A program made the translations under genes and the position numbers. Below, one piece after another: positions 4,286 to 26,014 of a stretch of 64,000 nt of DNA (positions are counted from its first letter, which is position 1; every line of letters begins with the position of its first letter). This DNA is from a virus. Its lineage: Duplodnaviria > Heunggongvirae > Uroviricota > Caudoviricetes. The notes beneath the pieces were generated by a model. That model had not been told where the DNA came from, made no database searches, and saw nothing but the letters and a program-made list of their open reading frames with translations. The DNA lies in IMG/VR virus record IMGVR_UViG_3300032327_000093, positions 5,215 to 69,214 of that record. One strand, 5' to 3'.

Positions 4286-4286
4286 C

Positions 4287-4727
4287 ATGAAAAAAATAAT
4301 ATTATTATTGACATTGACAATACTATCTAGTGTTACATTAGCAGAAAAGCAAAAAGAAGGTGTAACATACGATGCTGTGATAACTAGAGTTATCGATGGT
4401 GATACTGTAGCCTTTCAAGCACCATTCTTACCTGACCCATTAAAGAAAGAATTGAGTATTCGTGTGTATGGTGTTGATACACCAGAAAAAGGGTTTAGAG
4501 CAAAATGTCCTAGCGAAGATCAAAGAGGTCAAGCAGCAACTGCTTTCACTAAGCATGCCATTGAAGTCGCAAACAAACGACAAGTCGTTCTCATGGATTG
4601 GGACAAGTATGGTGGTCGTGTGTTAGGTGATGTACTATTAAATGGACAAAGCCTTAGACAAATGCTAATTAGTCAAGGCTTTGCCCGAGAATACTACGGT
4701 GAAGCTAAAACCAGCTGGTGTAACTAA
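4287..4727 (+). CDS. secreted thermonuclease (staphylococcal-nuclease/SNase-like) with Sec signal peptide
   Basis: N-terminal MKKIILLLTLTILSSVTLA-EK signal; SNase motifs GDTVAF...VYGVDTPEKG and DKYGGRVLGDVLL. Confidence 0.7.
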   Translation: MKKIILLLTLTILSSVTLAEKQKEGVTYDAVITRVIDGDTVAFQAPFLPDPLKKELSIRVYGVDTPEKGFRAKCPSEDQRGQAATAFTKHAIEVANKRQVVLMDWDKYGGRVLGDVLLNGQSLRQMLISQGFAREYYGEAKTSWCN

Positions 4728-7223: not shown

Positions 7224-7832
7224 ATGCTAAAACTGCTCTTTCCATTACCAAAAGAAATCGTTATCGCATTTAGTGGCGGTGTTGATAGTGTTGCTATCAC
7301 AGATTTCCTTTCACAAAAACATAAGGTAACTTGTGCTTTCTTCCATCATGGAACAGAGAATAGTGAACGAGCATTAGAATTTGTTGCTAAATTCTGCACC
7401 GAACGTAATCTTCCACTTATGATTGGATTGATTAAGAATCAGAAGCCAAAAGAACTTAGCACAGAAGAATATTGGCGAAATGAACGCTATGACTTCTTAG
7501 ATAGTTTTGGTGATTCATTGGGTCCAGTAATCACTGGGCATCATTTGGATGACTGTGTAGAAACATATCTTTGGTCATCACTTCACGGACAACCAAAAGT
7601 TATTCCATCAAAAAGAAACAATGTTGTACGCCCATTTCTAACTACACACAAAAGTGAATTTACAAATTGGTGCGAACGAAAAGATATCAATTGGTGTCAC
7701 GACAATAGCAATGATGACACAAAATATATGCGTAACTATGTAAGAACACATCTCATGCCACACGCATTACATATTAACCCAGGATTGCATACTGTGGTTA
7801 AAAAGATTGTAGAAAGTCAGCAAAATGTTTGA
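7224..7832 (+). CDS. PP-loop ATPase, TilS (tRNA(Ile)-lysidine synthetase) N-domain-like; alternatively a QueC-like amidotransferase-type ATP pyrophosphatase
   Basis: SGGVDS PP-loop (IAFSGGVDSVAI) plus GHHLDDCVETYLWSSLHG, which matches the TilS HHxDDQxET signature; only 202 aa (N-domain only). Confidence 0.5.
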   Translation: MLKLLFPLPKEIVIAFSGGVDSVAITDFLSQKHKVTCAFFHHGTENSERALEFVAKFCTERNLPLMIGLIKNQKPKELSTEEYWRNERYDFLDSFGDSLGPVITGHHLDDCVETYLWSSLHGQPKVIPSKRNNVVRPFLTTHKSEFTNWCERKDINWCHDNSNDDTKYMRNYVRTHLMPHALHINPGLHTVVKKIVESQQNV

Positions 7833-7880: not shown

Positions 7881-8141
7881 ATGACAGCAAAAATATTTAC
7901 AGGTGAACAAAAAATTAAACTGGTTCAATTGGTGAATGAGGGCATGGTAGTATTACATGAAATCGATACCCTACGTGAGGGTCTAAGTGATACTGTAAAG
8001 GCTATCGCAGAAGAACTAGAAGTAAAGCCTAGCATTCTTAAGAAGGCAATATCTGTCGCACACAAAGCAAGTCTTGGTCAAACAAACGCTGACCACGAAG
8101 AACTAAACACAATCTTGGAAACTGTAGGTAAGACACTTTGA
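7881..8141 (+). CDS. hypothetical small protein (86 aa)
   Basis: ORF with a strong RBS (aaggagaaattATG); its stop overlaps the polymerase start. Confidence 0.4.
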   Translation: MTAKIFTGEQKIKLVQLVNEGMVVLHEIDTLREGLSDTVKAIAEELEVKPSILKKAISVAHKASLGQTNADHEELNTILETVGKTL

Positions 8142-10843
8142 GTTACGTTGACGCTATTCATAGCAGGGATGAGGATCGTATCTACGTTGTAGAACGAGAC
8201 AAGGATGGCAAACGTCAATACAAAGAATATCCCACAAACTATGTACTCTACTATCCCGATCATAAGGGCAAGTATCGTAGCATATATGGCGACCCCGTAA
8301 ATCGTTTCAGCACACGCAAACGACAAGAGTTTGAAAAAGAACGCAGGATACATTCTGGTAAAAAACTCTTTGAAAGTGATGTGCCAGTGATTTTTCGCTG
8401 CCTTAGTGAAAACTATCTCAAGGCAGATGTTCCTAAACTTCACACATGCTTCTTTGACATTGAGGTAGACTTTGATCCTGAGAAGGGTTTCAGTCCCACT
8501 AGTGATCCATTCAATCCAGTAACTGCTATCTCATTATATCTGGACTGGCAAGATACATTGGTTACACTATGTATTGCTCCCAAACACATGAGTCCAGAGA
8601 CAGCACAGGAAATCTGTAATGAGTTTGAGAACTGTATGTTGTTAACAAATGAAAAGGACATGTTTGATGTTTTCTTTCAACTGATTGAAGATGCTGATGT
8701 GATGACTGGTTGGAACAGTGAAGGATATGATATACCTTATATGGTTAATCGTGTCACAAGAGTAATGAGCAAGGATGATACTCGCAAGTTTTGCTTAATG
8801 GGTCAACTACCTAAAGCAAGAGAATACGAACGTTTTGGTAAAAGTGAAACTACATATGACTTAGTAGGTCGTATTCACATGGACTACTTACAACTCTACA
8901 AGAAGTATAACTATGAATCACGACATTCATATAAGTTAGATGCTATTGGTGAGATGGAAGTAGGCGAGAACAAGACTCAATATGAAGGTACTCTTGACCA
9001 ATTGTATAACAAAGACTTTAAGAAGTTTTTAGAATACAATCGTCAGGATACTATGTTGTTGGTGAAGATTCACAACAAACTCAAATTCTTAGAACTAGCT
9101 AATCAGCTAGCACATGAGAATACAGTATTACTGCCAACAGTAATGGGTTCTGTAGCTATGATTGAAATGGCAATTTTCAATGAAGCGCATGAACGCGGAG
9201 TAGTAGTTCCCGATAAAAAACGAAAGAATGAAAATGCAGAAGAAACAACGCCAGCAGCAGGTGCCTTCGTTGCTACGCCCAAAAAAGGCATGCACGAATA
9301 CGTCGGAGCAGTTGACATTAACTCGCTCTATCCCTCGGTTATTCGTGCCCTCAACATGGCAGGAGAAACAATCATCGGTCAAGTCCGTCAGACATTAACT
9401 GACAAATATATGGACGACAAGGGCAAGCAACTTGCTAGCCTTAAGAAACGATATAAAGAAGGTGACGATGATGTTACTGGTGCTATTCTATGGGAAAACT
9501 TGTTTGGCGTATTAGAATATTGTGCTATTATGAATCAAGACCGTGGCACAATGCTTACACTAGATTATGAAGATGGTCGTAGTGAAGAATATAGTGCGGC
9601 TGAAATATGGAAGATGATTTTTGATAGCAATAGACCTTGGATGCTAAGTGCAAATGGTACAATCTTTACATATGAGAAAGAAGGTATTGTCCCTGGATTA
9701 CTATCACGCTGGTATAGTGATCGTAAGGTCATGCAAAAGAAACTTAAAGAATCTACTACTAACGAAGATAGAGAATACTGGGACAAGCGTCAACTTGTTC
9801 GCAAGATTTTGTTGAATAGTGCATATGGTGCACTACTAAATGAACATTGTAGATTCTATGATAAGCGTATTGGTCAGAGTGTTACATTAAGTGGTCGTCA
9901 GATTGTCAAACACATGATGAGTACTATTAATGAAACAATCGCAGGTACATATGCACACGATGGCGATGCTATTGTATATGGTGATACTGACAGTTGTTAC
10001 TTTACTGCATACCCTATTCTGAATACGCAAATACAGAATGGTGAACTAGAGTGGAACAAAGAAACTTGCATCGGGTTGTATGATAGTATTGCTGACCAAG
10101 CTAACGAAAGTTTCCCCGCATTCATGGAACGTGCATTTCATGCACCACGCAAGAATGGTGAAATCATCAAAGCTGGTCGTGAATTGATTGGCGATCGTGC
10201 TATCTTTATCACAAAGAAACGCTATGCTATCAATATCTTTGATAAAGAGGGCAAGCGCAAAGATACAAACGGTAAGAACGGTGATATCAAGGCAATGGGT
10301 CTTGACTTGAAACGTGCTGATACTCCTAAGTACATACAAGAATTCTTAATGGATGTGCTTACTAAGGTCCTTGCTGGTGCTCAACGTGATGTTGTTATTG
10401 AAATGGTTAAAGAATTCAAAAACAAACTATCAGAACAAGATAGTTGGACAAAGGGTTCACCTAAATCAGTTAACAACTTGACTAAGCATACAATTGAGTT
10501 TGAAAAGACTGGTAAGTGTGGTGTTGGTCATGCCCGTGCAGCAATTAACTGGAACTATCTACGCAGAGTATATGGTGACAACTACAGTCAAAAGATTGTA
10601 GATGGTATGAAGATTGTTGTATGTAAACTCAAAGACAATGCATTGGGCTTCACTAGTATCGCATATCCAGTTGATGAACTACGACTACCTACATGGTTCA
10701 AGGAATTGCCTTTCGATGATTTACTAATGGAAAAGACATTGGTAGATGAAAAGATTGATAACTTGATTGGCGTATTAGATTGGGATATCAGAAGCAATAC
10801 TGATGTTAACTCAACATTTGATGACTTATTCACATTTGGTTAA
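8138..10843 (+). CDS. family-B DNA polymerase with 3'-5' exonuclease domain
   Basis: Exo I FFDIEVD; pol motifs KILLNSAYGAL (motif A region) and YGDTDSCYF (motif C); 901 aa. Confidence 0.95.
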   Translation: MSYVDAIHSRDEDRIYVVERDKDGKRQYKEYPTNYVLYYPDHKGKYRSIYGDPVNRFSTRKRQEFEKERRIHSGKKLFESDVPVIFRCLSENYLKADVPKLHTCFFDIEVDFDPEKGFSPTSDPFNPVTAISLYLDWQDTLVTLCIAPKHMSPETAQEICNEFENCMLLTNEKDMFDVFFQLIEDADVMTGWNSEGYDIPYMVNRVTRVMSKDDTRKFCLMGQLPKAREYERFGKSETTYDLVGRIHMDYLQLYKKYNYESRHSYKLDAIGEMEVGENKTQYEGTLDQLYNKDFKKFLEYNRQDTMLLVKIHNKLKFLELANQLAHENTVLLPTVMGSVAMIEMAIFNEAHERGVVVPDKKRKNENAEETTPAAGAFVATPKKGMHEYVGAVDINSLYPSVIRALNMAGETIIGQVRQTLTDKYMDDKGKQLASLKKRYKEGDDDVTGAILWENLFGVLEYCAIMNQDRGTMLTLDYEDGRSEEYSAAEIWKMIFDSNRPWMLSANGTIFTYEKEGIVPGLLSRWYSDRKVMQKKLKESTTNEDREYWDKRQLVRKILLNSAYGALLNEHCRFYDKRIGQSVTLSGRQIVKHMMSTINETIAGTYAHDGDAIVYGDTDSCYFTAYPILNTQIQNGELEWNKETCIGLYDSIADQANESFPAFMERAFHAPRKNGEIIKAGRELIGDRAIFITKKRYAINIFDKEGKRKDTNGKNGDIKAMGLDLKRADTPKYIQEFLMDVLTKVLAGAQRDVVIEMVKEFKNKLSEQDSWTKGSPKSVNNLTKHTIEFEKTGKCGVGHARAAINWNYLRRVYGDNYSQKIVDGMKIVVCKLKDNALGFTSIAYPVDELRLPTWFKELPFDDLLMEKTLVDEKIDNLIGVLDWDIRSNTDVNSTFDDLFTFG

Positions 10844-11653: not shown

Positions 11654-12045
11654 TCAAGGGTATAGCTCCAATGGGTAAGTACACAGTTGTTTCTGCGGGG
11701 AATACTAGTGTTCCCTATGTCAATCCAAATATCAACAATCCTATACAAGGAATGATACGTATCAGTGGTACTGATATGCAAGTGTATGACGGAACTACTT
11801 GGATGACGATGAATACTAGCTATGCAAGTGTTGGATTGTCATCTGATGCAGAAGCATTGCTTGACTGGGCTAGAAAAAAACGTAATGAAGAATTTGAATT
11901 AGAAGCATTAGCACAAACTAATCCTACTATCAGAGATTTATTAGACACTATCAAGCAAAAAGAAGAACAAATAACTATTGTCAGGACTTTAATTAAACAA
12001 GAAGTCGGTGAATCAGGTGTATCAATTCCATATGGCCCAGCATAA
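11650..12045 (+). CDS. hypothetical protein
   Basis: ORF, translationally coupled (ATGA overlap). Confidence 0.35.
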   Translation: MIKGIAPMGKYTVVSAGNTSVPYVNPNINNPIQGMIRISGTDMQVYDGTTWMTMNTSYASVGLSSDAEALLDWARKKRNEEFELEALAQTNPTIRDLLDTIKQKEEQITIVRTLIKQEVGESGVSIPYGPA

Positions 12046-13615
12046 TCTAACATCAACACATAACCCAGAGTGGGCATTGTTCTTACCCGCAGTCAGCAGT
12101 TTCTATATTGCTGGCTTAGGTAAGCAACGCAAGGGTGAGCCATACTTTGATCAGACTCGCATTCCGGCAGGATTCAAAGGTGATGTTGAGAAACTAAATT
12201 TTCTTAACAGCAAAGAAGGTCTTTACTATTACAAGTGGGGACTGTATAGTGCTGGTCATGCTAACTTAGATACTACAGACGATGATGCAAGCGAATCAAT
12301 CATACGTGAACGTGAAGCTGGCACATTCATGTTAGGTGATAGCGGCGGCTTTCAGATTCTTAAAGGTCAATGGCCCGCAGACTGGAAGGATCCTAACTGT
12401 CCTCGTGCTATGAAGAAACGTAAAGCAGTATTGAATTGGATGGATACATACATGGATTACGGTATGTGTTTAGATATCCCAAGTCAATCATTGACCACTT
12501 ATCACATCAAAGATCCTAAGACAGTGGAAAAAGATAGTGATGGTAATATTATTCCAGGCACTGGAAAAAGTGTGCATGGTATTAAATTGATTGCAGATGC
12601 AGTAAAAGCTACACATATTAATAACGAATACTTTATAAATAACCGCTCAGGGAAATGTAAGTTTTTGAATGTATTGCAAGGTCGCAATCATGACCAGTCG
12701 GATGATTGGTATAACGAAATGAAAAGATATTGTGACCCAAATATTTATCCAGACAATCATTTTAATGGTTGGGCATTCGGTGGACAAAACAAGATTGATA
12801 TTCATCTAACATTGCGTAGAATGACTGAAATTATCCATGATGGATTGTTATGTGAAGGTAAGCATGATTTGATTCACTGTTTAGGTACAAGTATCTTAGA
12901 ATATGCTGTATTGTTCACTGATATGCAGAAAGCTATTCGCAAGTATCACAATCCAAAACTACAGATTACTTTTGATTGTGCTAGTCCTTTCTTTAGTGCT
13001 GCTAAAGGTCTTGCTTATTTCAATACAACTATTGAGCATAATAAGAAATGGTCTTATCAAATGGAAAAGACTGCTGAAAAGAAAAGTTATGCAAGTGATA
13101 CACGCAAGTTCCGTGATGCTGTATTAGCTGATAAAATTCATAAATCATTTACAGACAGTCCTGTGACTGATGCATTGGTTATGAAAGACTTGTGTTATCG
13201 TGGTGTAGGATTCTTAGGACAACACGGTAAAGAAACTAAAACAAGCTGGGACACATTAAGCTATACACTACTACAAAGTCATAATGTTTGGATGCACATG
13301 AATGCGGTTCAAGAGGCTAATCGTCAATATGAACAAGGCGTCATCCCCAAAATGATTGTGCATAAACTTGAAGGTGATAGATTCTTTACTCAATTGGTTG
13401 ATGAAATATTTAGTAAGAAAACTAAACAGGAAGCATGGGAATTGATTGACCAACATAGTAGTTATTGGAAACAATTTCAATCTGGTAGCCAAGGTATCAG
13501 TGGTAAGAAAACTGAAAATGCCATGAGTTTTTTTGATAAATTGTTTACTGTAGAAGAAGAAACAATTGAAGAAATAGAAGATAGTGATGAAGCTATTGCA
13601 TTAGTTTTGGAGTAA
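12008..13615 (+). CDS. dpdA: tRNA-guanine-transglycosylase-like DNA transglycosylase (DpdA-like) for 7-deazaguanine insertion into DNA
   Basis: MLGDSGGFQILKG matches the TGT catalytic-Asp motif (DSGGFQ); 535 aa; sits next to folE/queD/queE. Confidence 0.6.
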   Translation: MNQVYQFHMAQHNLTSTHNPEWALFLPAVSSFYIAGLGKQRKGEPYFDQTRIPAGFKGDVEKLNFLNSKEGLYYYKWGLYSAGHANLDTTDDDASESIIREREAGTFMLGDSGGFQILKGQWPADWKDPNCPRAMKKRKAVLNWMDTYMDYGMCLDIPSQSLTTYHIKDPKTVEKDSDGNIIPGTGKSVHGIKLIADAVKATHINNEYFINNRSGKCKFLNVLQGRNHDQSDDWYNEMKRYCDPNIYPDNHFNGWAFGGQNKIDIHLTLRRMTEIIHDGLLCEGKHDLIHCLGTSILEYAVLFTDMQKAIRKYHNPKLQITFDCASPFFSAAKGLAYFNTTIEHNKKWSYQMEKTAEKKSYASDTRKFRDAVLADKIHKSFTDSPVTDALVMKDLCYRGVGFLGQHGKETKTSWDTLSYTLLQSHNVWMHMNAVQEANRQYEQGVIPKMIVHKLEGDRFFTQLVDEIFSKKTKQEAWELIDQHSSYWKQFQSGSQGISGKKTENAMSFFDKLFTVEEETIEEIEDSDEAIALVLE

Positions 13616-13619
13616 TAAT

Positions 13620-13829
13620 ATGTATAGACAACGAATTGCAAGATTAGAACAACAAATCAAGGACCTTGATGCTAAAATACTAACAGCAGAACAGGACAAA
13701 GACTTTGATGTAGATACCCTTAAAGATATGAAAATAGATAGAAATGATGTATACTTTGAGTTAAGGAAGTATACAAAACTTCAATGGGAAGAAGATCACG
13801 AACGTGTTCGTTTTGAGGATGATAGATGA
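13620..13829 (+). CDS. hypothetical small coiled-coil protein
   Basis: ORF (69 aa). Confidence 0.3.
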   Translation: MYRQRIARLEQQIKDLDAKILTAEQDKDFDVDTLKDMKIDRNDVYFELRKYTKLQWEEDHERVRFEDDR

Positions 13830-14281
13830 TTGAACAAAGAATTATGGCATTGGCAGAAAAGCGTCAACGCATCAAAGATAAAGCAATGCGTACAATTTTT
13901 GTGCGCTTTCAAAAAGAAGGTATTCATAAGTACCCGGCAGCAGCAACAGACCCTAACTTGGCAACAGGTGATGAGTATGATGTTAGCTTTCTAGCAACTC
14001 CACATCGTCACATCTTTCACTTTGAAGTGACGATTGAAGTGTTTCACAACGATAGGGATATTGAGTTTATTCAATTCAAAAGATGGCTAGAGAATCAATA
14101 TTCTCAAAACATTCTTGCATTGGATTACAAAAGTTGTGAAATGATTAGTGATGACCTTTATGAGGTTATCGCAACTCGGTATCCAGATCGTAATATCAAA
14201 ATCACAGTCTCTGAGGACAATGAGAATGGTGCTACGATTCATTATAATATAACTAAACCTTTAACTAACCTCGCTATCTAA
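13826..14281 (+). CDS. hypothetical protein inside the deazaguanine cluster (possible divergent T-fold protein; PHRHIFHFEV)
   Basis: 151-aa ORF, coupled to neighbours. Confidence 0.35.
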   Translation: MIEQRIMALAEKRQRIKDKAMRTIFVRFQKEGIHKYPAAATDPNLATGDEYDVSFLATPHRHIFHFEVTIEVFHNDRDIEFIQFKRWLENQYSQNILALDYKSCEMISDDLYEVIATRYPDRNIKITVSEDNENGATIHYNITKPLTNLAI

Positions 14282-14290
14282 GGAAACAAA

Positions 14291-14497
14291 ATGGCAAAAC
14301 AAACTTTTCAATCTAACCCACGTGTTCAACAAATCTTTGAGGACCTAGAGAAATATCTAGACTTCTGTGTGGGTTACGGTTATAAGTACAACGAAGCAGA
14401 ACTGTATGACCAACGCAGTTATGTATACCGTCAGTATACAAAATTCGCAACTGGTAAAGTTGCTCGTGATCAATGGCAGGAAAACGCTCGTCCATAA
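14291..14497 (+). CDS. hypothetical small protein
   Basis: ORF with RBS aaggaaacaaaATG. Confidence 0.35.
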   Translation: MAKQTFQSNPRVQQIFEDLEKYLDFCVGYGYKYNEAELYDQRSYVYRQYTKFATGKVARDQWQENARP

Positions 14498-14585
14498 TGC
14501 GTAAACACAGTAAGATGAACCAAGCAAAAAGCATGAACAGCGACTTTACTAAGGAAGAATTAATGAAACTCTATGAGGATAGACA

Positions 14586-15758
14586 ATGAGAAAATTATGG
14601 TATTGTGGATTGGAGCCTTATAAAGCCCGATACACCTTGCAATTACAAGAGTGGAATACTACTGTGTTTGAACGTAGAGGCATCAACTATGTTGTAGTGC
14701 CTGGTGAAACACTTAGCAATGACCAAGCGATTGTTACAGGTCAAGTATTAGATGCACATGGTCGCACATACTACGGTATGAGTCAACTTATGAATCTAAT
14801 TCGTATGATGAAACAAGGAGAACTAAACAATGAAGATGTTATCTACTTTGAGGACATGTTTCAACCCGGTATCGAGAGCCTGCCTTATATTATGGATCAA
14901 ATTGATCCTACTCATCGTCCCCGTATTTTTGTGCGGTGTCTTGCTCAGTCCATTGATCCTGATGATTTCGTTCATGTGTGGGGAATGGCAAAGTGGATGG
15001 CGCAATATGAAAAACTCGTGGACTCATTTGTTAGCGGTGTTTTGGCCACGAATGAGGAAATGGTAGCACACATGAAGATTGCAGGGTGGACTGCTCCAAT
15101 CTATAATATCAGTGGGTTAGCATTTGGCAAATCAGAAGTGCAGAGCCGTGTAGCAAGTATCAAGCCATTCAATGAACGCAAAATGCGTGTAGTGTTTTCT
15201 GCACGATGGGATCAGGAGAAACAACCTGACTTCTACATGGACCTAATTGAGGCATGGCATAAGCAAAATGGACCAGAACTTGAGTTCTGTGTATGTAGTG
15301 GTGGCAAACTAAAATCAAATAGTGATAGCTATATGCAACGCACTTATAATTTGGTTGATAGAGGACTACTAACAATCTATGAGGATTTAGAAAAGAATGA
15401 ATACTATGACATTGTTAATGATAGTCGGGTTGTATTTAACTGTGCGCTACAAGATTGGGTTTCAAACACAGTCAGTGAGGCTGATGCTCTCGGATGCAAT
15501 GTGCTATACCCTGCTTATCGTAGCTTCCCTGAAACTTTTGCCAACGACCATACTCGTCTTTATGTACCTTGGTCTATTGATGATGCTATGGACAAACTGG
15601 AAGCGTTATTGGACACACCACATCCAGCCATGGGCGCAATCAGCGACTACAACAACGGAACAATCGACCGAATCATCGACATCTTAGAAGGTGGTGGAAA
15701 AGATATGCTACGAATGAATGTAGACTATCGTAAACACACTAGAGAAAGTAAATATTAA
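14586..15758 (+). CDS. glycosyltransferase-like protein (paralogous to 18986-20356; possibly a T4 alpha-glucosyltransferase-like GT-B DNA glycosyltransferase)
   Basis: VFSARWDQEKQP here and FIGRWEERKNP in ORF 18986 share an RW(D/E)(Q/E)(E/R)K motif; N-terminus MRKLWYCGLEPY...LQLQEW recalls the T4 AGT N-terminus from memory; 390 aa. Confidence 0.4.
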   Translation: MRKLWYCGLEPYKARYTLQLQEWNTTVFERRGINYVVVPGETLSNDQAIVTGQVLDAHGRTYYGMSQLMNLIRMMKQGELNNEDVIYFEDMFQPGIESLPYIMDQIDPTHRPRIFVRCLAQSIDPDDFVHVWGMAKWMAQYEKLVDSFVSGVLATNEEMVAHMKIAGWTAPIYNISGLAFGKSEVQSRVASIKPFNERKMRVVFSARWDQEKQPDFYMDLIEAWHKQNGPELEFCVCSGGKLKSNSDSYMQRTYNLVDRGLLTIYEDLEKNEYYDIVNDSRVVFNCALQDWVSNTVSEADALGCNVLYPAYRSFPETFANDHTRLYVPWSIDDAMDKLEALLDTPHPAMGAISDYNNGTIDRIIDILEGGGKDMLRMNVDYRKHTRESKY

Positions 15759-15770
15759 AAAGGAAACAAA

Positions 15771-15959
15771 ATGAACGCACATAATGATATTAAAACACAA
15801 TTGGCAGCATATGAAGCCGAACATGAAAAGTTTGAAAAAGGTAATGCAGCCGCTGGAACACGTGCCCGTAAAGCATTGGGCGAACTAGCTAAAGCAGTTA
15901 AGGCACGCCGTAATGAAATCACCGCTGAAAAAGCAGCAAGAAAAGAAGCTAAGGCTTAA
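15771..15959 (+). CDS. small Ala/Lys-rich basic protein (histone-H1-like / nucleoid-associated-like)
   Basis: AAGTRARKALGELAKAVKARRNEITAEKAARKEAKA; RBS aaaggaaacaaaATG. Confidence 0.35.
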   Translation: MNAHNDIKTQLAAYEAEHEKFEKGNAAAGTRARKALGELAKAVKARRNEITAEKAARKEAKA

Positions 15960-15977
15960 TCTGTGATAAATAAATAT

Positions 15978-16001
15978 GTAAGCTACACAACGGTAGCTTA
16001 C
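15978..16001 (+). terminator. stem-loop (gtaagctac-acaacg-gtagcttac), terminator-like
   Basis: 9-bp perfect stem followed by an A/T-rich tract; between the 15771 gene and folE. Confidence 0.4.
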
Positions 16002-16038
16002 ATTTCAAAACAAAAACCATCACAAAGGAAGGTTATCT

Positions 16039-16716
16039 ATGAGTTATAATAAAACAAAAACAGATCCAGAACTGGGTCAAAAAGTACACGAACATTTGGT
16101 TAAGATGGGAGTTGAGACTCCTACAAAGCCAACTATCTTTGATCGTAAAGATAAAATTGAAGTCATTGAAGCGCATTTTTCACAAATCATGCGTACTCTT
16201 GGGCTTGATTTAGAAGATGATAGTTTGTGTGATACGCCAAAGCGTGTAGCAAAGATGTATGTCAACGAAATCTTTTGGGGTCTTGATTATGAGGCATTCC
16301 CTAAATGTACAGCAGTCGATAACAAGATGAAGTACAATGAAATGGTGTGCGAACGCAATATCAATGTACAAAGCAATTGCGAACATCACTTTGTAGTCAT
16401 CGATGGTCTCGCTACTGTCGCATATGTTCCCAATCAAAAGGTTCTAGGATTGAGTAAAATCAATCGTATCGTAGAATACTTTAGCAAGCGTCCACAGATA
16501 CAAGAACGATTGACTGAACAAATCTTTCACACACTACAGTATATTCTAGACACCGAAGATGTAGCGGTCATGATTGACGCACAACATTATTGTGTCAAGA
16601 GTCGTGGGGTAGAAGATACTGGCAGTAGTACTGTCACAAGCAAGCTAGGCGGTGGCTTCAAAAGTGACCCAGCAGCAAGAGCAGAATTCTATCAATTGGC
16701 TCGGGGCGGGAAATGA
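16039..16716 (+). CDS. folE: GTP cyclohydrolase I
   Basis: CEHHFVVIDG active-site signature; 225 aa. Confidence 0.85.
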   Translation: MSYNKTKTDPELGQKVHEHLVKMGVETPTKPTIFDRKDKIEVIEAHFSQIMRTLGLDLEDDSLCDTPKRVAKMYVNEIFWGLDYEAFPKCTAVDNKMKYNEMVCERNINVQSNCEHHFVVIDGLATVAYVPNQKVLGLSKINRIVEYFSKRPQIQERLTEQIFHTLQYILDTEDVAVMIDAQHYCVKSRGVEDTGSSTVTSKLGGGFKSDPAARAEFYQLARGGK

Positions 16717-17174
16717 TATTTAATAGAATCAAAGAACTAAAACAACAAGGCCTAAAGATAGGTATCGTATTCTCGCAATTTGATATATTACATGCAGGAC
16801 ATATCGCAATGCTTAGTGAAGCTAAGAATCATTGCGATTACCTAATTGCTGGATTACAAAACAATGCACAATGGGACAGACCCGAAAAGAATTCACCCAT
16901 TCAAAGTATCGTTGAACGCCAGATAAGTTTAAGTGCTGTACGTTTCGTAGACGAAATCGTAGTATATAACACAGAAAAAGATTTGGAAGACATACTGTTG
17001 ACATTGCCAGTAGATGTGCGTATACTAGGGGTTGAGTACATGGAGAAAGACTTTACTGGTCGTGCAATCTGTGAGAAGCGTAGGATTGAATTGGTATTCA
17101 ATAGTCGTGACCATAGTTTTAGTAGTAGTAGTTTGCGTAAACGTGTAGTACAAGCTGAATCAAAGGATAAATAG
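16713..17174 (+). CDS. sugar-phosphate nucleotidyltransferase, HldE domain II / cytidylyltransferase-like (HxGH)
   Basis: GIVFSQFDILHAGHIAMLSEAKNHCDYLIAGL matches the FDILHAGH...GD.LIV pattern of ADP-heptose synthase (HldE C-domain) and TagD-type cytidylyltransferases. Confidence 0.6.
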   Translation: MIFNRIKELKQQGLKIGIVFSQFDILHAGHIAMLSEAKNHCDYLIAGLQNNAQWDRPEKNSPIQSIVERQISLSAVRFVDEIVVYNTEKDLEDILLTLPVDVRILGVEYMEKDFTGRAICEKRRIELVFNSRDHSFSSSSLRKRVVQAESKDK

Positions 17175-17200
17175 AGATAGCGGTCTCGGCGTCATCCCGC

Positions 17201-17229
17201 TTTACAAATTCTGCTGCCTATGCTATAAT
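17201..17229 (+). promoter_or_regulatory. promoter TTTACA-17 nt-tgcTATAAT (extended -10) with inverted repeat CCTATG...CATAGG around the -10
   Basis: tttacaaattctgctgcctatgctataat, followed by aggagaaaatcATG (queD). Confidence 0.45.
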
Positions 17230-17245
17230 AACATAGGAGAAAATC

Positions 17246-17728
17246 ATGGCAAAGAAATATTTCAGTACAAAAACGTACAAACAGATAGGTCCAGTAGCTT
17301 ATCGTCAATGGCGTGCAGATAGTCATTGTAATCTAATTCACGGTTACGCAATGTCGTTTCATTTTGAATTTGAAGCAGATACATTGGATGCACGTAATTG
17401 GGTTACAGACTTTGGTGGATTAAAACCACTCAAAGGCTTACTAGAAGATTGGTTCGATCATACATTACTAGTCGCACAAGATGACCCAATGCGTGAACAT
17501 TTACTTGAATTGGGTAGATTGAAACTAGCTAAGATTACAGAAGTAGAAAAGACAGGATGCGAAGGTATTGCTGACTTTTTATATGAATATGTGAACACTA
17601 TCTTTCTGCCAAACTGTGGTAGCGAAGAAGCTAAACGTGTCTGGTGCTGTAAAGTAGAGGTTAGAGAGACAGATAGTAACATGGCAGGTCGTCAAGGTCA
17701 TAGAGAAGATAACGAATTTCAGGATTAA
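17246..17728 (+). CDS. queD: 6-carboxy-5,6,7,8-tetrahydropterin synthase (QueD/PTPS family)
   Basis: CNLIHGY...DFGGLK aligns with the QueD C..LHGH...DF.ELK pattern. Confidence 0.7.
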   Translation: MAKKYFSTKTYKQIGPVAYRQWRADSHCNLIHGYAMSFHFEFEADTLDARNWVTDFGGLKPLKGLLEDWFDHTLLVAQDDPMREHLLELGRLKLAKITEVEKTGCEGIADFLYEYVNTIFLPNCGSEEAKRVWCCKVEVRETDSNMAGRQGHREDNEFQD

Positions 17729-17729
17729 C

Positions 17730-18572
17730 ATGGCAAAATTAAAAATAGCAGAACTATTTTACAGCATTCAAGGTGAGGGTAGATACACGGGTGTCCCTTC
17801 CGTGTTCCTAAGAACATTCGGCTGCAACTTCAAATGTGCAGGATTTGGTATGCCTAAGGGTGAATTAAGTCAAGAAGCAAATAATATTGATGCGACAAAG
17901 TATACTGATTACAAGATGTTACCTCTTGTGTCTACTGGATGTGATAGTTATGCAAGCTGGGATCCAAGATTCAAAGACTTGAGTCCAATGCTTGAGACTG
18001 ATACTATCGTTGATAGCATCATGGATATGTTACCACATAAGCGTTGGTTAGATGAACATCTTGTTATCACAGGAGGTGAACCACTACTAGGCTGGCAGCG
18101 TAGTTATGTTGATTTACTTTCACATGATAACATGAAAGGCTTACAAGAATTGACTTTTGAGACTAATGGCACACAGGCATTACATCAGGATCTAAGATTC
18201 TTTTTGAATAAATGGTGTGTCAGTCGCAGTATGGGTTCTATCACATTCAGCGTCAGTCCTAAACTCAGCATCAGTGGTGAGAAGTGGGATGATGCAATCT
18301 GTCCAGACATAATCTATGAGTACAGCCAAGTTGGGCATACATATCTAAAATTTGTAGTAGCTACTAACGAGGATATGGAAGAAGCTGAGGAGGCAGTAAA
18401 TGCGTATCGTAAGAGGGGTTTTCGTGGTCATGTTTATCTCATGCCTTGTGGTGGCGTTGAGCGGGTGTACAATCTTAATAATAGGGCAGTGGCAGAAATG
18501 GCAATGCGAAAAGGATGGCGGTATAGTGATAGACTACAAGTGCCGTTATTCAAAAACGAGTGGGGCACTTGA
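17730..18572 (+). CDS. queE: 7-carboxy-7-deazaguanine synthase (radical SAM)
   Basis: ELFYSIQGEGRYTGVPSVFLRTFGCNFKC is a strong QueE N-terminal signature. Confidence 0.8.
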   Translation: MAKLKIAELFYSIQGEGRYTGVPSVFLRTFGCNFKCAGFGMPKGELSQEANNIDATKYTDYKMLPLVSTGCDSYASWDPRFKDLSPMLETDTIVDSIMDMLPHKRWLDEHLVITGGEPLLGWQRSYVDLLSHDNMKGLQELTFETNGTQALHQDLRFFLNKWCVSRSMGSITFSVSPKLSISGEKWDDAICPDIIYEYSQVGHTYLKFVVATNEDMEEAEEAVNAYRKRGFRGHVYLMPCGGVERVYNLNNRAVAEMAMRKGWRYSDRLQVPLFKNEWGT

Positions 18573-18817
18573 TGCCATCAAGTGATTGGACTACGATATC
18601 GGCTAGTGACTATCATTTCAAAAGATGTATTATGGGTAGAAAATTAAAGTTTACCCTTATCCCTAGACGTTGCTATGTCACAAAGCGTATAATATGGTTA
18701 AAGAGTGCATATCGTATTACCGCAGGATATCCAGTAGGGTTTGCAGATTGGTTGTACGAACATCGGTGGTATGATAAAGATGAATATTTAATAGCAAGAT
18801 TAAGGGATTTAATATGA
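18560..18817 (+). CDS. hypothetical small protein
   Basis: ORF. Confidence 0.3.
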   Translation: MGHLMPSSDWTTISASDYHFKRCIMGRKLKFTLIPRRCYVTKRIIWLKSAYRITAGYPVGFADWLYEHRWYDKDEYLIARLRDLI

Positions 18818-19011
18818 GATTTGAAATGCGTTGGCTTGTTACACCAAATTGGGATGAAGGTCCCGAGAAGATATTACAATATCGCTATGAAAGAGAAATA
18901 ACAGATTACAGTTTACAGAACCCAACTACAGGTTCATTTATAACTAGAAAAGAATTGACTGAATGGATCGATGTTCCAACAGTAGATGAGGCGTGGAATG
19001 CGGACATATAA
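18814..19011 (+). CDS. hypothetical small protein
   Basis: ORF. Confidence 0.3.
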   Translation: MRFEMRWLVTPNWDEGPEKILQYRYEREITDYSLQNPTTGSFITRKELTEWIDVPTVDEAWNADI

Positions 19012-20356
19012 CAAACGCATTGGCTTCCTAATTGCGGATCAACATTTTATTCCACATGGTGGAATAGGACAATTTGCTAAAGGCTTTACAGAGTTATGTC
19101 AGCGTATCAACTGGAAAGTTGATATCATATTAGACAAGCAACCTACAAATGATTTTAGCGAATATGTAAAATCATTGGGTGCTAATATTGTATATCCTGA
19201 TGATCCATTAAGATATTCTTCACATACTGCTACATTCGCATTTAGTGATAGCATTAACTTTGAGAAGATGGTTAACTTTAGAGAAAGTTTACTAAAGGCT
19301 TTTCATACTAATATCTATGACATGCTAGTGTGTAACACACAGGAAGCAATGAGTGCTGCATATGCTATGGGCATTGGTAAGTATATTCCAGTAGTATTCT
19401 ATACACATTCATATAGCATGGTATTTCGTGATGAACAAGATTTTAGTGATGTTTGCATAGATGAATATCATAGTTACTTCAATAAACATATGGAACTGGC
19501 ACATGTTTTTGTAGGCACACAGAGTCAAAAAAATGTAAATGAACTTACTAAGTACGGGGCAAAGAATGTTGCATTATTGCGTATGCCATTGAGTGAACGT
19601 GGATTACTTGAGCCTAACAATGGACCTCGTAGTGGTGTATTGTTTATTGGTCGTTGGGAAGAACGCAAGAATCCGTCAGCTTATATTAAAGTAATGAAAG
19701 AGACAGGATTGCCTTGTAAGGTAATGACTAATGGTACTGGTGCAAAGAAGTTTGAGAAAGCATTTAGTGAAGCTGGTATCACAGACTATGAAATCAAAAT
19801 TGCCATTGTAGGACAAGAGAAGGTAGACTTCATTAAGAGTTGTAAAGTATTCTTCATGCCAGCATTAGGCGAGAACTATCCGTTTGCGTTTAGTGAATGC
19901 TTAGGACATATGCCATGTGTTGTATTGGACAATCAGGAATGGTCCGATAACTTTGATGAAAAGTATTTCTATAAAGAGAAACTAGAAAACGCAGGCAATT
20001 TAATCAGCATGTTATATATTGTTGATAATTATTATACTACTGGTGCATTAGATTATATATATGACCTAGATGATGTTACGGCTAAAGGTTGGATAACATT
20101 CTTGGACAATTTCGTTGCAAAGCGTAGCAATACAAATGCAGCAAAGATTAACACATATGAAACTGTATGCTACCGTGACTATATAAAAGAATTGAATCGT
20201 AGTCACTTAGCCCGTGAAGATTTTGAAAGTGTATTGGCTAATCGTCAGAAGTTTATCATTAACACATATACAGATGACAATAGCTATTTGAGTAAAGACC
20301 CGTTATTCAAGCCAGTAGAAGAAGAAACAGGGTTAGACTTATTCGAAGGATTATAA
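18986..20356 (+). CDS. glycosyltransferase (GT-B, group-1/GT4-like), paralog of 14586-15758
   Basis: LFIGRWEERKNPSAYIKVM resembles the GT4 E-x7-E region; 456 aa. Confidence 0.5.
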   Translation: MRRGMRTYNKRIGFLIADQHFIPHGGIGQFAKGFTELCQRINWKVDIILDKQPTNDFSEYVKSLGANIVYPDDPLRYSSHTATFAFSDSINFEKMVNFRESLLKAFHTNIYDMLVCNTQEAMSAAYAMGIGKYIPVVFYTHSYSMVFRDEQDFSDVCIDEYHSYFNKHMELAHVFVGTQSQKNVNELTKYGAKNVALLRMPLSERGLLEPNNGPRSGVLFIGRWEERKNPSAYIKVMKETGLPCKVMTNGTGAKKFEKAFSEAGITDYEIKIAIVGQEKVDFIKSCKVFFMPALGENYPFAFSECLGHMPCVVLDNQEWSDNFDEKYFYKEKLENAGNLISMLYIVDNYYTTGALDYIYDLDDVTAKGWITFLDNFVAKRSNTNAAKINTYETVCYRDYIKELNRSHLAREDFESVLANRQKFIINTYTDDNSYLSKDPLFKPVEEETGLDLFEGL

Positions 20357-21177
20357 TGAAAAAAGTATTAATAACAGGGAACAGTGGTTACATAGGTAGT
20401 CATCTTAGTAAGATGCTATACAAAGATTATGAATTGTATGGACTAGATATTAATCCATCACAGTTCCCTGTAACAGACCATTTTCAAGTTGATATCAATA
20501 AAGTATTCAATATGGATATGGAATTTGATTGTGTGATTCATTTAGCAGCATTGGTCAACGTAGGCGAAAGTGAAAAGAAACCTATTCAATATTACATTAC
20601 TAACCTGAATGGTACAATGAATGTTATCAACAAGATAAAGACAAAGAATTTTATCTTTGCTAGTACAGGTGCAGCAGTAGGTTGTGCTAGTGCGTATGGT
20701 ATCAGTAAACGTGCTGCGGAAGATGTTGTGCGTGAGTATTGCACACAGCATAGACCTACACCATATACTATCTTTAGATTCTACAATGTGATTGGTAGTG
20801 ATGGGTTTGAACCAACTAATCCAGATGGACTAATGTATAACTTAATGCAAGCAAAAGAGAAGGGTGAGTTTACTATCTTTGGTACTGATTATAATACATT
20901 TGATGGAACTTGCATTCGTGACTATGTGCATGTGAATGAGATATGCGATGCATTGCGTACTGCTATCGAAAAGCCAAGCAATCAAGTAGAATCATTAGGC
21001 CACGGTACAGGTCATACAGTTAGACAGATTGTTAACCTATACAAGAAGGTCAACAACATTGACTTTCTAATAAAAGAAGGGCCAAGAAGAAAGGGTGACT
21101 TAACAATATCTGTGTTAGATAATGTGTCACCCTATATGAAAGAGTTATACTCTTTAGAACAACTACTTAAGGTTTAA
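20356..21177 (+). CDS. NAD-dependent epimerase/dehydratase (short-chain dehydrogenase/reductase (SDR) family, short form)
   Basis: N-terminal Rossmann TGNSGYIGSHL; catalytic YGISK (YxxxK). Confidence 0.6.
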   Translation: MKKVLITGNSGYIGSHLSKMLYKDYELYGLDINPSQFPVTDHFQVDINKVFNMDMEFDCVIHLAALVNVGESEKKPIQYYITNLNGTMNVINKIKTKNFIFASTGAAVGCASAYGISKRAAEDVVREYCTQHRPTPYTIFRFYNVIGSDGFEPTNPDGLMYNLMQAKEKGEFTIFGTDYNTFDGTCIRDYVHVNEICDALRTAIEKPSNQVESLGHGTGHTVRQIVNLYKKVNNIDFLIKEGPRRKGDLTISVLDNVSPYMKELYSLEQLLKV

Positions 21178-24946: not shown

Positions 24947-26014
24947 ATGTTACACTATATGTATTATTTATCACTTTGGGCTTTTACCTTGACAAATCAA
25001 TCTATCAAACGCATCGGTTTTGCTTGCAAATTTAGTGAACTAAACAGCAAGGGTGAAGTCTGTTCGGTCAAAGAACTTAACACAGGTGGTACAACTCGTG
25101 CATGGGTCAATAGACAATCTCGTAGTGCCGCAGAAGAAAAGATACTTGATGTATCAAAGCAAAATATACTGCATACACACAATTTAGTTAAGAAGGTAGC
25201 AACACTACGACCTGAACTACGAATGGTTCGTCTTACTAGTGATATGTTGCCTTTCTACACAATGGACGGCTGGCAAGACTTTTGGCATGACAAGTCAATG
25301 CAAGATAGTCTAGCCCGATGGTTTGCACCCATTGGTGAAACTGCGCGGGCTAACGATGTTCGTCTTAGCTTTCACCCTGACCAATTTGTAGTTTTAGCTA
25401 GCGACCGTGAAGAAGTAGTAAATAAGAGTATTGAAGAATTTGAATATCATGTTGACATGGCCCGCATGATGGGTTATGGTAAACAGTTTCAAGATATCAA
25501 AATCAACGTACATATCAGTGGTCGTAAAGGTCCACAGGGCATTCGTGATGTGTATGGAAGACTGTCACCCGAAGCCCGTAACACACTTACACTAGAGAAT
25601 GAGGAATATACACATGGACTACTTGACTGCTTATCATTATCTGACCTCGTACCTACGGTCATGGACATACATCATAATTGGATACGTGAAGGAACATACA
25701 TTCAGCCTAATGATGTACTTGTACAACGTGTTATTGATAGTTGGCGTGGCATCCGCCCTACTATGCATTACAGTGTTAGCCGCGAAGATGTACTTGGAGC
25801 ACATCCCGGACATGTCTTACCCGATCATGGTGCGTTGATCAATGAAGGATACAGTAAGCAGAAACTCAGGGCACATAGTGATTACTACTGGAATGACGCT
25901 GTGAACGATTGGGCATTGACATTCTGTGATAACTTTGATATCATGTGTGAGTCAAAGGCAAAGAATCTTGCCAGCTTTAGATTATTTGAGAGATATAAAA
26001 ATGGGACTATTTGA
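24947..26014 (+). CDS. UV-damage endonuclease (UvdE/Uve1-like)
   Basis: RIGFACKFS N-terminal pattern and a TLTLENEEYTH (xLENxE) motif typical of the UvdE TIM-barrel family; 355 aa. Confidence 0.5.
   Translation: MLHYMYYLSLWAFTLTNQSIKRIGFACKFSELNSKGEVCSVKELNTGGTTRAWVNRQSRSAAEEKILDVSKQNILHTHNLVKKVATLRPELRMVRLTSDMLPFYTMDGWQDFWHDKSMQDSLARWFAPIGETARANDVRLSFHPDQFVVLASDREEVVNKSIEEFEYHVDMARMMGYGKQFQDIKINVHISGRKGPQGIRDVYGRLSPEARNTLTLENEEYTHGLLDCLSLSDLVPTVMDIHHNWIREGTYIQPNDVLVQRVIDSWRGIRPTMHYSVSREDVLGAHPGHVLPDHGALINEGYSKQKLRAHSDYYWNDAVNDWALTFCDNFDIMCESKAKNLASFRLFERYKNGTI

Follow-up and report, generated by a model that had tools for sequence, protein, structure and literature searches.

A QueC-less, DpdL-containing 7-deazaguanine DNA-modification module with associated sugar genes in a jumbo-phage fragment

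The 64,000-nucleotide stretch of DNA analysed here (the window) is a jumbo-phage fragment in which nt 12008–21177 form a single plus-strand block of tightly packed genes (Table 1). The evidence supports identification of this block as a 7-deazaguanine DNA-modification module. Our overall reading, to which we assign a probability of about 0.55, is a phage DNA guanine-hypermodification module that lacks QueC, contains DpdL and has a glycosylation branch attached. Within it the deazaguanine-insertion core is highly probable, and that the sugar ends up on the deazaguanine base is a tentative proposal. Chance does not account for the arrangement, which we found again at 82 related loci as well as in several unrelated phage lineages. 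An initial annotation had described the module from the sequence; all of its open reading frames were located where it had placed them, and its description was confirmed overall, with a DpdA of genuine TGT fold; its interpretation held in part.

Table 1. Genes of the deazaguanine block and the principal evidence for each
Feature	Position	Strand	Evidence
DpdA, long and divergent DNA guanine transglycosylase, TGT superfamily	12008..13615	+	TGT fold, catalytic motifs
69-aa ORF, overlaps DpdL start	13620..13829	+	29-86% identity in ~40 of 82 related loci
DpdL, QueD paralogue, proposed CDG decarboxylase	13826..14281	+	phrog_17812 at 3e-32
68-aa conserved ORF	14291..14497	+	56-100% identity in related loci
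GT1, GT4-like GT-B glycosyltransferase, conserved DpdA/DpdL partner	14586..15758	+	GT4/GT20-like GT-B fold
62-aa Lys/Ala-rich protein, Hc1 (histone H1-like) type	15771..15959	+	homologue in locus L003 with PF07432 (Hc1)
FolE, GTP cyclohydrolase I	16039..16716	+	NF006824 326.9 bits (cutoff 202); Pfam 1.3e-62
HIGH-motif nucleotidyltransferase, HldE domain II/TagD-like, 153 aa	16713..17174	+	Pfam CTP_transf_like 9.2e-10
QueD, 6-carboxytetrahydropterin synthase	17246..17728	+	Pfam PTPS 55.8 (cutoff 22.4), 5.5e-15; PHROG QueD-like 1.8e-42
QueE, radical-SAM CDG synthase	17730..18572	+	PHROG QueE family 2e-51
Two small overlapping ORFs (85 and 65 aa), bridging QueE to GT2	18560..19011	+	overlap at both ends
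GT2, GT4-type GT-B glycosyltransferase, EX7E motif	18986..20356	+	Pfam Glycos_transf_1 9.6e-4, under gathering score
Short extended-SDR, GalE-like NDP-sugar epimerase, 273 aa	20356..21177	+	Pfam Epimerase 1.1e-32

The genes for base synthesis are readily recognized. FolE retains legible CEHH and HYCxKSRG motifs, QueD the motif CNLIHGY (CxxxHGY), and QueE the N-terminal ELFYSIQGEG...GCNFKC motif, with five NCBIfam QueE models matching at 1e-11 to 1e-15, all under cutoff. Profile scores and motifs thus bear out the gene set claimed for the path from GTP to 7-carboxy-7-deazaguanine (CDG). QueC was not found among the window ORFs scanned; the gene at nt 7224–7832 was identified as the N-terminal PP-loop domain of TilS (TIGR02432 127.6, cutoff 93.6), in keeping with the earlier statement that the cluster has no canonical queC and only a TilS-like PP-loop gene 5 kb upstream. 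The missing QueC is explained by the presence of a DpdL homologue.

DpdL had been overlooked in the initial annotation. Its LATPHRHIF fits the signature LxxxHRHxF (PMC10516641), and tblastn identities are 51% to ACP17 ASD50405, 59% to PA5oct gp318, 67% to Phosso and 31% to phiST CGPG_00067. DpdL of phiST was proposed to be a CDG decarboxylase, and 7-deazaguanine (dDG) was measured in the DNA of that phage (PMC10516641). Given the homologue and this precedent, the inserted base is predicted to be dDG, which revises the suggestion of CDG or something new. The core of the module is therefore of an already known kind, the QueC-less, DpdL-containing system described in 2023 (PMC10516641). With dpdA and dpdL alone, whether from ACP17 or phiST, Cui et al. 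did not succeed in reconstituting dDG, and they suggested that additional enzymes may be needed (PMC10516641); this speaks for a tie between the sugar genes and the module.

Homology and structure comparison identify the 535-residue TGT-fold enzyme as a divergent DpdA retaining TGT-type catalytic motifs, which are conserved among its homologues. Among solved structures, the one nearest to it belongs to a DpdA that acts on DNA, and a profile link joins its family to ACP17-type DpdA (probability 92%), so the claim that this ORF is TGT-like stands. The true start is probably ATG 12032, because homologues start at the equivalent of Met9. Its identity to bacterial DpdA (PDB 7ui4) and tRNA-guanine transglycosylases is about 13%, with no similarity at the level of HMMER, and unlike them it has a C-terminal helical extension of about 120 residues and an acidic tail. 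Bacterial DpdA, moreover, inserts preQ0 and requires DpdB.

The window and the phiST/ACP17-type system (PMC10516641) have in common FolE, QueD, QueE, DpdL, a TGT-like DpdA invisible to Pfam, and no QueC. The window DpdA exceeds those of that system by about 110 to 275 residues, and its relation to phiST CGPG_00065 is weak (hhalign probability 33%). ACP17 also carries a GT1-like gene, there between DpdA and DpdL, whereas the nucleotidyltransferase, GT2 and SDR are extra in the window clade; PMC10516641 makes no mention of a glycosyltransferase, sugar or nucleotidyltransferase. In the Pseudomonas jumbo phage PA5oct (Wroclawvirus), gp316–gp322 are syntenic with the window: PolB, a virion protein, a DpdA-like protein (gp316, 32–35% identity), a GT1-like protein (gp317), DpdL (gp318), an SDR fragment and QueE. 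This cluster has a phosphoribosyltransferase in place of the HIGH-motif nucleotidyltransferase, and no GT2. A 2021 jumbo-phage survey noted its deazaguanine synthesis and incorporation system (PMC7824862), and restriction analysis revealed modified G in its DNA, G-containing sites being resistant in GA/GG contexts (PMC12191111); the chemical identity of the base is not reported in the searchable literature.

The four sugar genes are interleaved with those for the base. The scores of the GTs, like those of QueE, lie under curated family cutoffs, a point against our overall reading. GT2 displays HGGIGQF, GRWEERKNP and E-NYPFAFS-E. The two GTs had been called paralogous GT-B proteins; the GT-B type holds for both, but close paralogy does not, their common stretch being one 31-residue GT-B motif region (E 0.002). 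Nor does the N-terminus of GT1 specifically resemble T4 alpha-glucosyltransferase: 33 other structures, nearly all GT-B glycosyltransferases, match GT1 better than the T4 alpha- and beta-glucosyltransferases do. The nucleotidyltransferase, with FDILHAGH (HAGH) and SSSSLRKR motifs and matches to TIGR02199 (8.3e-18) and TIGR01518 (2.1e-13), each under its cutoff, is HldE-domain-II-like as first described. The sugar-epimerase assignment of the SDR likewise held (TIGR01179 164.5 bits versus a cutoff of 262). Overlaps couple FolE to the nucleotidyltransferase, by 4 nt at the FolE stop, and QueE to the two small ORFs, GT2 and the SDR, whose start overlaps the GT2 stop. The nucleotidyltransferase, and the GT2 and SDR coupled to QueE, are additions seen in this clade. 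Among the small genes, the Hc1-type protein is 76–100% identical clade-wide, the 85- and 65-aa ORFs are partially conserved within the clade, and the 69-aa ORF found no family match in Pfam and PHROG profile searches. Other products of the window include fibre proteins with collagen repeats, a lectin-like protein, a methyltransferase and a second SDR.

Comparison across phages supports a tie between sugar genes and module that goes beyond local gene order. Among clade loci long enough to reach the gene in question, DpdL is present in 42 of 42 (reaching FolE), GT1 in 40 of 42 (lost from L026 and L027), the nucleotidyltransferase in 25 of 25 (reaching QueE), GT2 in 19 of 19, with bimodal identity of 41–50% or 67–91%, and the SDR in 12 of 12. 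GT1 homologues adjoin DpdA and/or DpdL in ACP17, PA5oct, BUDD/X1, Phosso, BCSR5 and BUCT-ZZ01, and in deeply divergent metagenomic jumbo phages as well; in three divergent metagenomic jumbo contigs DpdA is followed downstream by GT1, DpdL, an SDR and QueE. By tblastn, GT1 and DpdL are less than 4 kb apart in 18 of 23 cultured-phage records with a GT1-like gene. SDR epimerases also occur in the modules of PA5oct, L092, L093 and L094. The T4-like cyanophage BUCT-ZZ01 carries QueE, a phosphoribosyltransferase, QueD, FolE, GT2 (44% identity, adjoining FolE), DpdA, DpdL and GT1 in one block.

A pathway can be proposed from these assignments. FolE, QueD and QueE are shown by homology or structure to be the enzymes that convert GTP to CDG, from which DpdL may remove the carboxyl and so yield 7-deazaguanine, the reaction suggested for phiST. 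DpdA would then exchange guanine in replicated phage DNA for 7-deazaguanine. The nucleotidyltransferase and epimerase may make or adjust an NDP-sugar, which GT1, the partner conserved across lineages, could transfer to the deazaguanine, in DNA or before insertion; GT2 might add or vary a second sugar. A related reaction is found in vertebrate tRNA, where the GT4-family enzyme GTDC1/QTMAN makes mannosyl-queuosine. There too a GT4-type enzyme acts on a 7-deazaguanine derivative already in nucleic acid, but it attaches the sugar to the cyclopentenediol hydroxyl that queuosine offers in tRNA, whereas the substrate here would be DNA, and QueA/QueG-type genes are not present in the window. Unsubstituted 7-deazaguanine has no hydroxyl acceptor, and the linkage would have to be of N-, C- or ester type. 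Such a linkage is unusual for GT4-like enzymes and counts against a sugar on the base; no sugar-bearing deazaguanine in DNA has been reported in the searchable literature.

It is conceivable, though unlikely, that the module is a plain dDG system as in phiST, with unrelated sugar cargo: early genes that are simply transcribed along with it and whose products glycosylate another target, for example virion or fibre proteins or a glycan on the host surface. The lack of an obvious O-acceptor favours this, as do the two clade loci that have lost GT1 and the fibre, lectin-like, second SDR and methyltransferase genes of the window. GT1 was also undetected in ten DpdL-bearing phage records, and phiST has no GT1 gene, yet makes dDG with DpdL and DpdA3 (PMC10516641). 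GT2-like genes occur without nearby deazaguanine genes in Erwinia Alexandravirus, and the BUDD copy is far from the module. On the other hand, lineages differ in gene order around GT1 and DpdL, and despite this reordering GT1 stays beside DpdA/DpdL in at least six phage lineages, at the short distances given above. Block-wise transfer of the module between the jumbo clade and the T4-like cyanophage (GT1 64% identity) and the translational coupling of sugar genes to Que genes also argue against mere cargo.

A pathway at the nucleotide or small-molecule level is improbable. Here the base would be made into a nucleotide, a nucleoside or a glycoside, either ahead of its insertion into DNA or in place of it, and would be incorporated by replication or remain a free deazapurine glycoside. 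N-glycosylated 7-deazaguanine natural products exist, and the overlap of the nucleotidyltransferase with FolE would fit such a route. So would the type I phosphoribosyltransferase in the PA5oct, BUCT-ZZ01 and L094 modules, although salvage of displaced guanine explains it equally well. DpdA3 phages replace G completely, and free ADG nucleoside appears in CP220 infection (PMC10516641). Against this, the closest structure is that of a DNA-acting DpdA, a dGTP-destroying enzyme was not found among the window ORFs scanned, and PA5oct resistance looks motif-dependent, which fits post-replicative insertion (PMC12191111).

Under two stacked modifications, a reading raised in the initial annotation, the GTs would act separately from the deazaguanine, on a hydroxymethyl- or hydroxy-pyrimidine whose synthesis is encoded in another part of the genome. 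Known DNA glycosylation is always on modified pyrimidines; the T4 enzymes act on 5-hydroxymethylcytosine DNA, whereas the acceptor in our reading would be a purine analogue. Only 64 kb of genome is visible, compared with related contigs of 231 and 345 kb. Nevertheless the window shows no hydroxymethyl-pyrimidine pathway, and genes for a hydroxymethylase, TET/JBP or a DNA kinase were not seen in it; the one homologue of thymidylate synthase that it encodes is ThyA of canonical type (NF002497 356.8, cutoff 327); and between lineages GT1 tracks DpdL, not a pyrimidine-modifying gene. The idea is unsupported in the window and very improbable. Least credible is a tetrahydrobiopterin-glucoside-like pteridine made by FolE, the PTPS-family enzyme, SDR and GT4 enzyme, as in cyanobacteria: the carrier BUCT-ZZ01 does infect Synechococcus elongatus PCC 7942, but QueE, DpdA and DpdL would have no role, GT1 adjoins DpdA/DpdL and not FolE/PTPS in ACP17, PA5oct and BUDD, the SDR is of the GalE-like extended type and not the sepiapterin-reductase type, and 13 other GT4/GT20 structures score higher in the GT1 structure comparison.

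We therefore retain the DpdL-containing guanine-hypermodification module with an attached glycosylation branch as the preferred reading. If the sugar branch is real, these phages would carry a sugar-bearing purine in their DNA, a kind of modification undescribed in the searchable literature, and the co-travel of the sugar genes across unrelated phages hints that they may.

The product of ORF 12008 gives no match in Pfam, PHROG, NCBIfam or PADLOC, with phmmer, or when a nine-sequence profile is run against PDB sequences; its link to TGT enzymes came only from structure prediction and hhalign. AlphaFold yields a confident model (pLDDT 87.7, pTM 0.86) with a TIM barrel of TGT type. Three TGT enzymes are the only Foldseek hits in PDB below E 1e-3, in agreement with the TGT-like character proposed in the initial annotation. 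In an alignment of 60 family members (33–90% identity) from two database searches, D111 (DSGGFQ), H290xLG, and D323 (FDCAS) are invariant, the catalytic aspartates included; we take D111 and D323 to be the counterparts of TGT D102 and D280. From the confident model, the Foldseek hits and the invariant motifs, the protein is predicted to be a genuine, very divergent DpdA. Since homologues begin at the equivalent of Met9, the gene probably starts at 12032. Pfam PF01702 matches neither this protein nor its homologues in PA5oct, Phosso, Vibrio phage 2.275.O, ACP17, BUDD, and BUCT-ZZ01, and the published DpdA3 assignment likewise required HHpred (PMC10516641). No CxCxxC...H zinc-site pattern was found in the family, whose conserved C-terminal residues are only C396, H425, and H430. 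Indirect evidence suggests that the family exchanges guanine on DNA, as a homologue (32–35% identity) is encoded by PA5oct, a phage whose DNA is modified at G (PMC12191111).

The link to the short DpdA3 of Cellulophaga phage phiST, CGPG_00065, is weak: hhalign gives a probability of 33% (E 4.5e-4, 94 columns), and tblastn of ORF 12008 finds no match to it. Homology with the ACP17-type DpdA (ACP17, BUDD, and BUCT-ZZ01, about 420 aa) is clearer. The hhalign probability is 88.7% for the ACP17 dpdA product as a single sequence and 92% for the profile of the three (E 6.4e-7, about 181 core columns), and BLASTP of the ACP17 product reaches members of the window family at E 2e-6. We infer from position and homology that ASD50403 is the ACP17 dpdA of Cui et al. 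(PMC10516641). The window also has the genomic context of DpdA3, namely FolE, QueD, and QueE with DpdL and without QueC. Vibrio phage 2.275.O carries a long-type DpdA with QueF, YhhQ, QueC, an amidotransferase-like protein, and a 370-aa protein that is amidoligase-like, which stand in place of DpdL and GT1. This gene set indicates that more than one base chemistry is served by the DpdA branch.

The 151-aa ORF downstream of DpdA (phrog_17812), overlooked at first, is a DpdL homologue. DpdL is a QueD paralogue proposed as the decarboxylase of 7-carboxy-7-deazaguanine (CDG) in phiST, where every G is replaced by 2′-deoxy-7-deazaguanosine (dDG) (PMC10516641). The DpdL signature LxxxHRHxF, as against CxxxHGH in QueD, reads LATPHRHIF in this ORF, and the adjacent true QueD retains CxxxHG(H/Y). 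H60, H62, and F64 are invariant among 12 homologues. By tblastn the protein is homologous to those of ACP17 (51%, E 2e-39) and phiST (CGPG_00067, 31%, E 4e-5), and its homologues were also matched by HMM. In PDB the DpdL profile gave no more than a marginal match, to chain 2dj6_A ('hypothetical protein PH0634', E 0.33), presumably a PTPS/QueD homologue.

No canonical QueC lies in the cluster, as had been noted, and PF06508 matches none of the window ORFs scanned. Because a DpdL homologue is present, the absence of QueC is the normal state of the described system type. The inserted base was previously left as CDG or something new; by analogy with this QueC-less, DpdL-bearing type, the expected base is 7-deazaguanine and not CDG. 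Heterologous expression of the DpdL system failed and the decarboxylase activity is proposed only; dDG was not reconstituted from dpdA and dpdL of phiST or ACP17, and extra enzymes were suggested as possibly needed (PMC10516641).

The other ORFs of the initial annotation are all present as described. FolE is unambiguous (NF006824, 326.9 bits vs cutoff 202; CEHH motif), and for QueD and QueE the evidence is Pfam and PHROG matches and signature motifs. The genes are closely spaced: the end of FolE runs 4 nt into the nucleotidyltransferase, and successive overlaps link QueE through two small ORFs to GT2 and on to the SDR. A promoter and terminator scan, lending weak support only, found no strong plus-strand terminator within the module; its counts are little above those of shuffled sequence for promoter-like sites (47 vs 39.6 ± 5.6) and terminator-like sites (9 vs 5.0 ± 2.1). 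The gap separating the Hc1-like gene from FolE holds a near-perfect 28-nt palindrome, ATGTAAGCTACCGTTGTGTAGCTTACAT, perhaps a terminator or regulatory hairpin.

The TilS-like PP-loop gene has a weak PADLOC QueC match (5.7e-6) and was rejected as a QueC substitute: it passes the TilS N-domain cutoff, and PolB lies between it and the module. It was also rejected as a module part, being absent from the modules of PA5oct, ACP17, BUCT-ZZ01, and the metagenomic jumbo contigs L092–L094. Relatives keep it upstream of PolB, with 80% identity in the 345-kb relative L003. The window holds no tRNA genes, and hence no obvious local substrate for it. The thymidylate-synthase homologue was rejected as a hydroxymethylase, being a canonical ThyA.

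Features of the window and of comparison loci (coordinates are those of the window unless a locus is named)
Feature	Coordinates	Strand	Remarks
Ferritin/Dps-like, staphylococcal-nuclease-like protein, UvdE UV-damage endonuclease	3845-4727 and 24947-26014	+	
Radical SAM protein, N-terminal twitch domain	4774-5976	+	NF033640 366.5 bits; weak viperin-like matches (PADLOC pVip 2e-7)
TilS N-terminal PP-loop domain, stand-alone	7224-7832	+	TIGR02432 127.6 bits vs cutoff 93.6; without tRNA-binding C-terminal domains
PolB	8138-10843		
DpdA (predicted)	12008-13615	+	
DpdL homologue	13826-14281	+	
GT1, glycosyltransferase-like	14586-15758	+	
Lys/Ala-rich histone H1-like (Hc1) protein	15771-15959	+	62 aa; inside module, between GT1 and FolE; 76–100% identity across clade
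Palindrome	15976-16003		
FolE	16039-16716	+	
HIGH-motif nucleotidyltransferase	16713-17174	+	
QueD	17246-17728	+	
QueE	17730-18572	+	
GT2, glycosyltransferase-like	18986-20356	+	
SDR, epimerase	20356-21177	+	
MoxR-type AAA ATPase, then DUF2201 metallopeptidase/VWA protein	40099-42593	+	
Canonical ThyA, then second SDR	44679-46779	+	SDR dTDP-glucose 4,6-dehydratase-like, 329 aa
Class I SAM methyltransferase	49135-49836	+	immediately upstream of fibre genes
Three very large collagen triple-helix-repeat proteins, concanavalin-like lectin-domain protein	50207-62012	+	repeat proteins 1171, 682, 1719 aa; presumably tail fibres
Small type I phosphoribosyltransferase	PA5oct (L001) 13946-14380; BUCT-ZZ01 (L006) 16303-16764; L094 14749-15222		
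Enlarged module	L003 12543-21046		
Module lacking GT1 and Hc1-like gene	L026, L027 11552-12560		different samples
Long-type DpdA locus	Vibrio phage 2.275.O (L005) 13663-17923		

GT1 has the two Rossmann domains of a GT-B fold. It scores 22.1 bits against Pfam Glycos_transf_1, below the gathering score of 26.4, and some close homologues have a precomputed PF00534 or PF13524 hit. The translation of GT2 contains the EX7E motif (E-NYPFAFS-E) and the GRxxxxK start of the C-terminal domain (FIGRWEERKNP), with a Pfam score of 19.2 bits vs the cutoff of 26.4. Two earlier claims about these proteins do not hold: GT1 and GT2 are not paralogues, having in common only the generic motif that opens the C-terminal domain, and GT1 bears no specific likeness to T4 AGT, which is neither its closest structural nor its closest sequence relative. 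The nucleotidyltransferase, described as HldE-domain-II-like, shows only the generic HIGH features (HAGH; Pfam CTP_transf_like 39.3 vs 21), scoring 64.6 bits against TIGR02199, the model of HldE domain II heptose-1-phosphate adenylyltransferase (below 181.5), and 50.5 bits against TagD-type TIGR01518 (below 165.4). The SDR is of epimerase type, as had been proposed (Pfam Epimerase 113.9 vs 20.9). Against GalE TIGR01179 it scores 164.5 bits, below 262.3, and with 273 aa it is shorter than that model (332 positions). As the nucleotidyltransferase and the SDR reach superfamily, not equivalog, cutoffs, the scores do not name the donor sugar.

Linkage was counted in the clade of jumbo-phage relatives of the window (82 loci), using for each gene only the loci long enough to reach it. 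DpdL is found in 42/42 loci, GT1 in 40/42, the nucleotidyltransferase and QueD each in 25/25, GT2 in 19/19, and the SDR in 12/12. Across lineages, GT1 homologues adjoin DpdA and/or DpdL in a shuffled gene order. The order is DpdA-GT1-DpdL-QueE in ACP17, DpdA-GT1-DpdL-x-SDR-PRTase-QueE in PA5oct (PRTase, phosphoribosyltransferase), GT1-DpdA-DpdL-QueE in BUDD, DpdL-GT1 in Phosso, and QueE-PRTase-x-QueD-FolE-GT2-DpdA-DpdL-GT1 in BUCT-ZZ01, a T4-like cyanophage; in BCSR5, GT1 is about 3 kb from DpdL. In L092, L093, and L094, whose DpdA is about 35% identical to that of the window, GT1, DpdL, SDR, and QueE lie at most 9 kb downstream of DpdA. Among cultured-phage records, 23 have a GT1-like gene, and 18 of these carry DpdL within 4 kb of it; the five exceptions are the weakest matches. 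The persistence of this adjacency across lineages is strong genomic evidence for a role of GT1 in the same pathway as the deazaguanine genes, and the epimerase probably acts there too. GT2 is less specific, with relatives also away from deazaguanine genes.

Several variations of the module were observed. GT2 identity is bimodal within the clade (41–50% or 67–91%; loci L008–L083), and its flanks in the same loci are conserved (QueE 64–94%, SDR 61–86%). This points to allelic replacement of the second glycosyltransferase or to diversifying selection on it; bimodality beside conserved neighbours is the pattern expected of a glycan-diversifying enzyme. L026 and L027 lack GT1 and the Hc1-like gene and retain DpdA, DpdL, FolE, the nucleotidyltransferase, QueD, QueE, GT2, and SDR. 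The phosphoribosyltransferase of the PA5oct, BUCT-ZZ01, and L094 modules occupies the place where the clade has the nucleotidyltransferase, and might serve salvage of the displaced guanine or deazaguanine nucleotide synthesis. The module of L003 is enlarged by a homologue of the YhhQ/Vut_1 queuosine-precursor transporter, an IMPDH/GuaC-like protein, and an APS-kinase-like P-loop kinase. It also gains a second nucleotidyltransferase, a fusion with a mannose-6-phosphate-isomerase cupin domain.

The window is a jumbo phage fragment. Its family-B DNA polymerase (PolB) is 43–46% identical to the enzymes of Agrobacterium phage Atu_ph07, Sinorhizobium phage Phosso, Vibrio phage 2.275.O, and 121Q/Rak2-like coliphages, and a T4-type large terminase and the collagen-repeat fibre proteins are encoded downstream of the module. 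Megablast found no match of the region among cultured phages. The clade is very common in metagenomes: ORF 12008 has matches in more than 7,000 90%-identity clusters, and at least 573 IMG/VR stretches encode a relative. Contigs run up to 231 and 345 kb.

We put at roughly one in three the chance that phages with DpdA, DpdL, and GT1 carry a glycosylated 7-deazaguanine in their DNA; the carriers would be the abundant metagenomic jumbo clade of the window, PA5oct, ACP17, BUDD/X1, Phosso, and BUCT-ZZ01. In a speculative route, DpdL would free C7 of the deazapurine, DpdA would insert the base, and the GT4-like GT1 would attach, by a C- or N-type linkage, a sugar that the nucleotidyltransferase and the epimerase provide; different GT2 alleles would then give different glycans. 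As unsubstituted 7-deazaguanine lacks a hydroxyl, any sugar linkage would be of N-, C-, or ester type. dDG is made in phiST with no GT1 gene, and GT1 is also missing from ten records that bear DpdL, showing that it is an addition and not a requirement for dDG. If further enzymes are needed for dDG in ACP17, GT1 is an obvious candidate, and a glycosylated base, if true, could explain the failed reconstitution of dDG from dpdA and dpdL alone. PA5oct DNA withstands enzymes whose sites contain G in a GA/GG context (PMC12191111); the chemical identity of its base is not reported in the literature searched.

The core of the module is a new, abundant member of an already known system type. In the literature searched, an association of glycosyltransferase or epimerase with deazaguanine genes is not mentioned, DNA glycosylation is reported on modified pyrimidines only, and DNA 7-deazaguanine bases are reported only with small C7 groups. 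Given the conserved association, a sugar-decorated deazaguanine is a realistic hypothesis, and as several carriers are cultured, the question is directly testable. If true, no sugar-bearing purine analogue would have been described in DNA before, as far as the literature searched shows, and the base would form a new class; it would matter for how such DNA evades restriction, CRISPR, and type IV/END-nucleases and for its handling in nanopore and enzymatic work. Regardless of the sugar, DpdA is now assigned to PA5oct-like therapeutic phages, GT1 is singled out as a possible member of the 'other unknown enzymes' suggested after the failed dDG reconstitution, and a large Pfam-invisible DpdA branch is defined, with 1,147 50%-identity cluster representatives in a profile search of the whole library and more than 7,000 90%-identity clusters for the clade alone.
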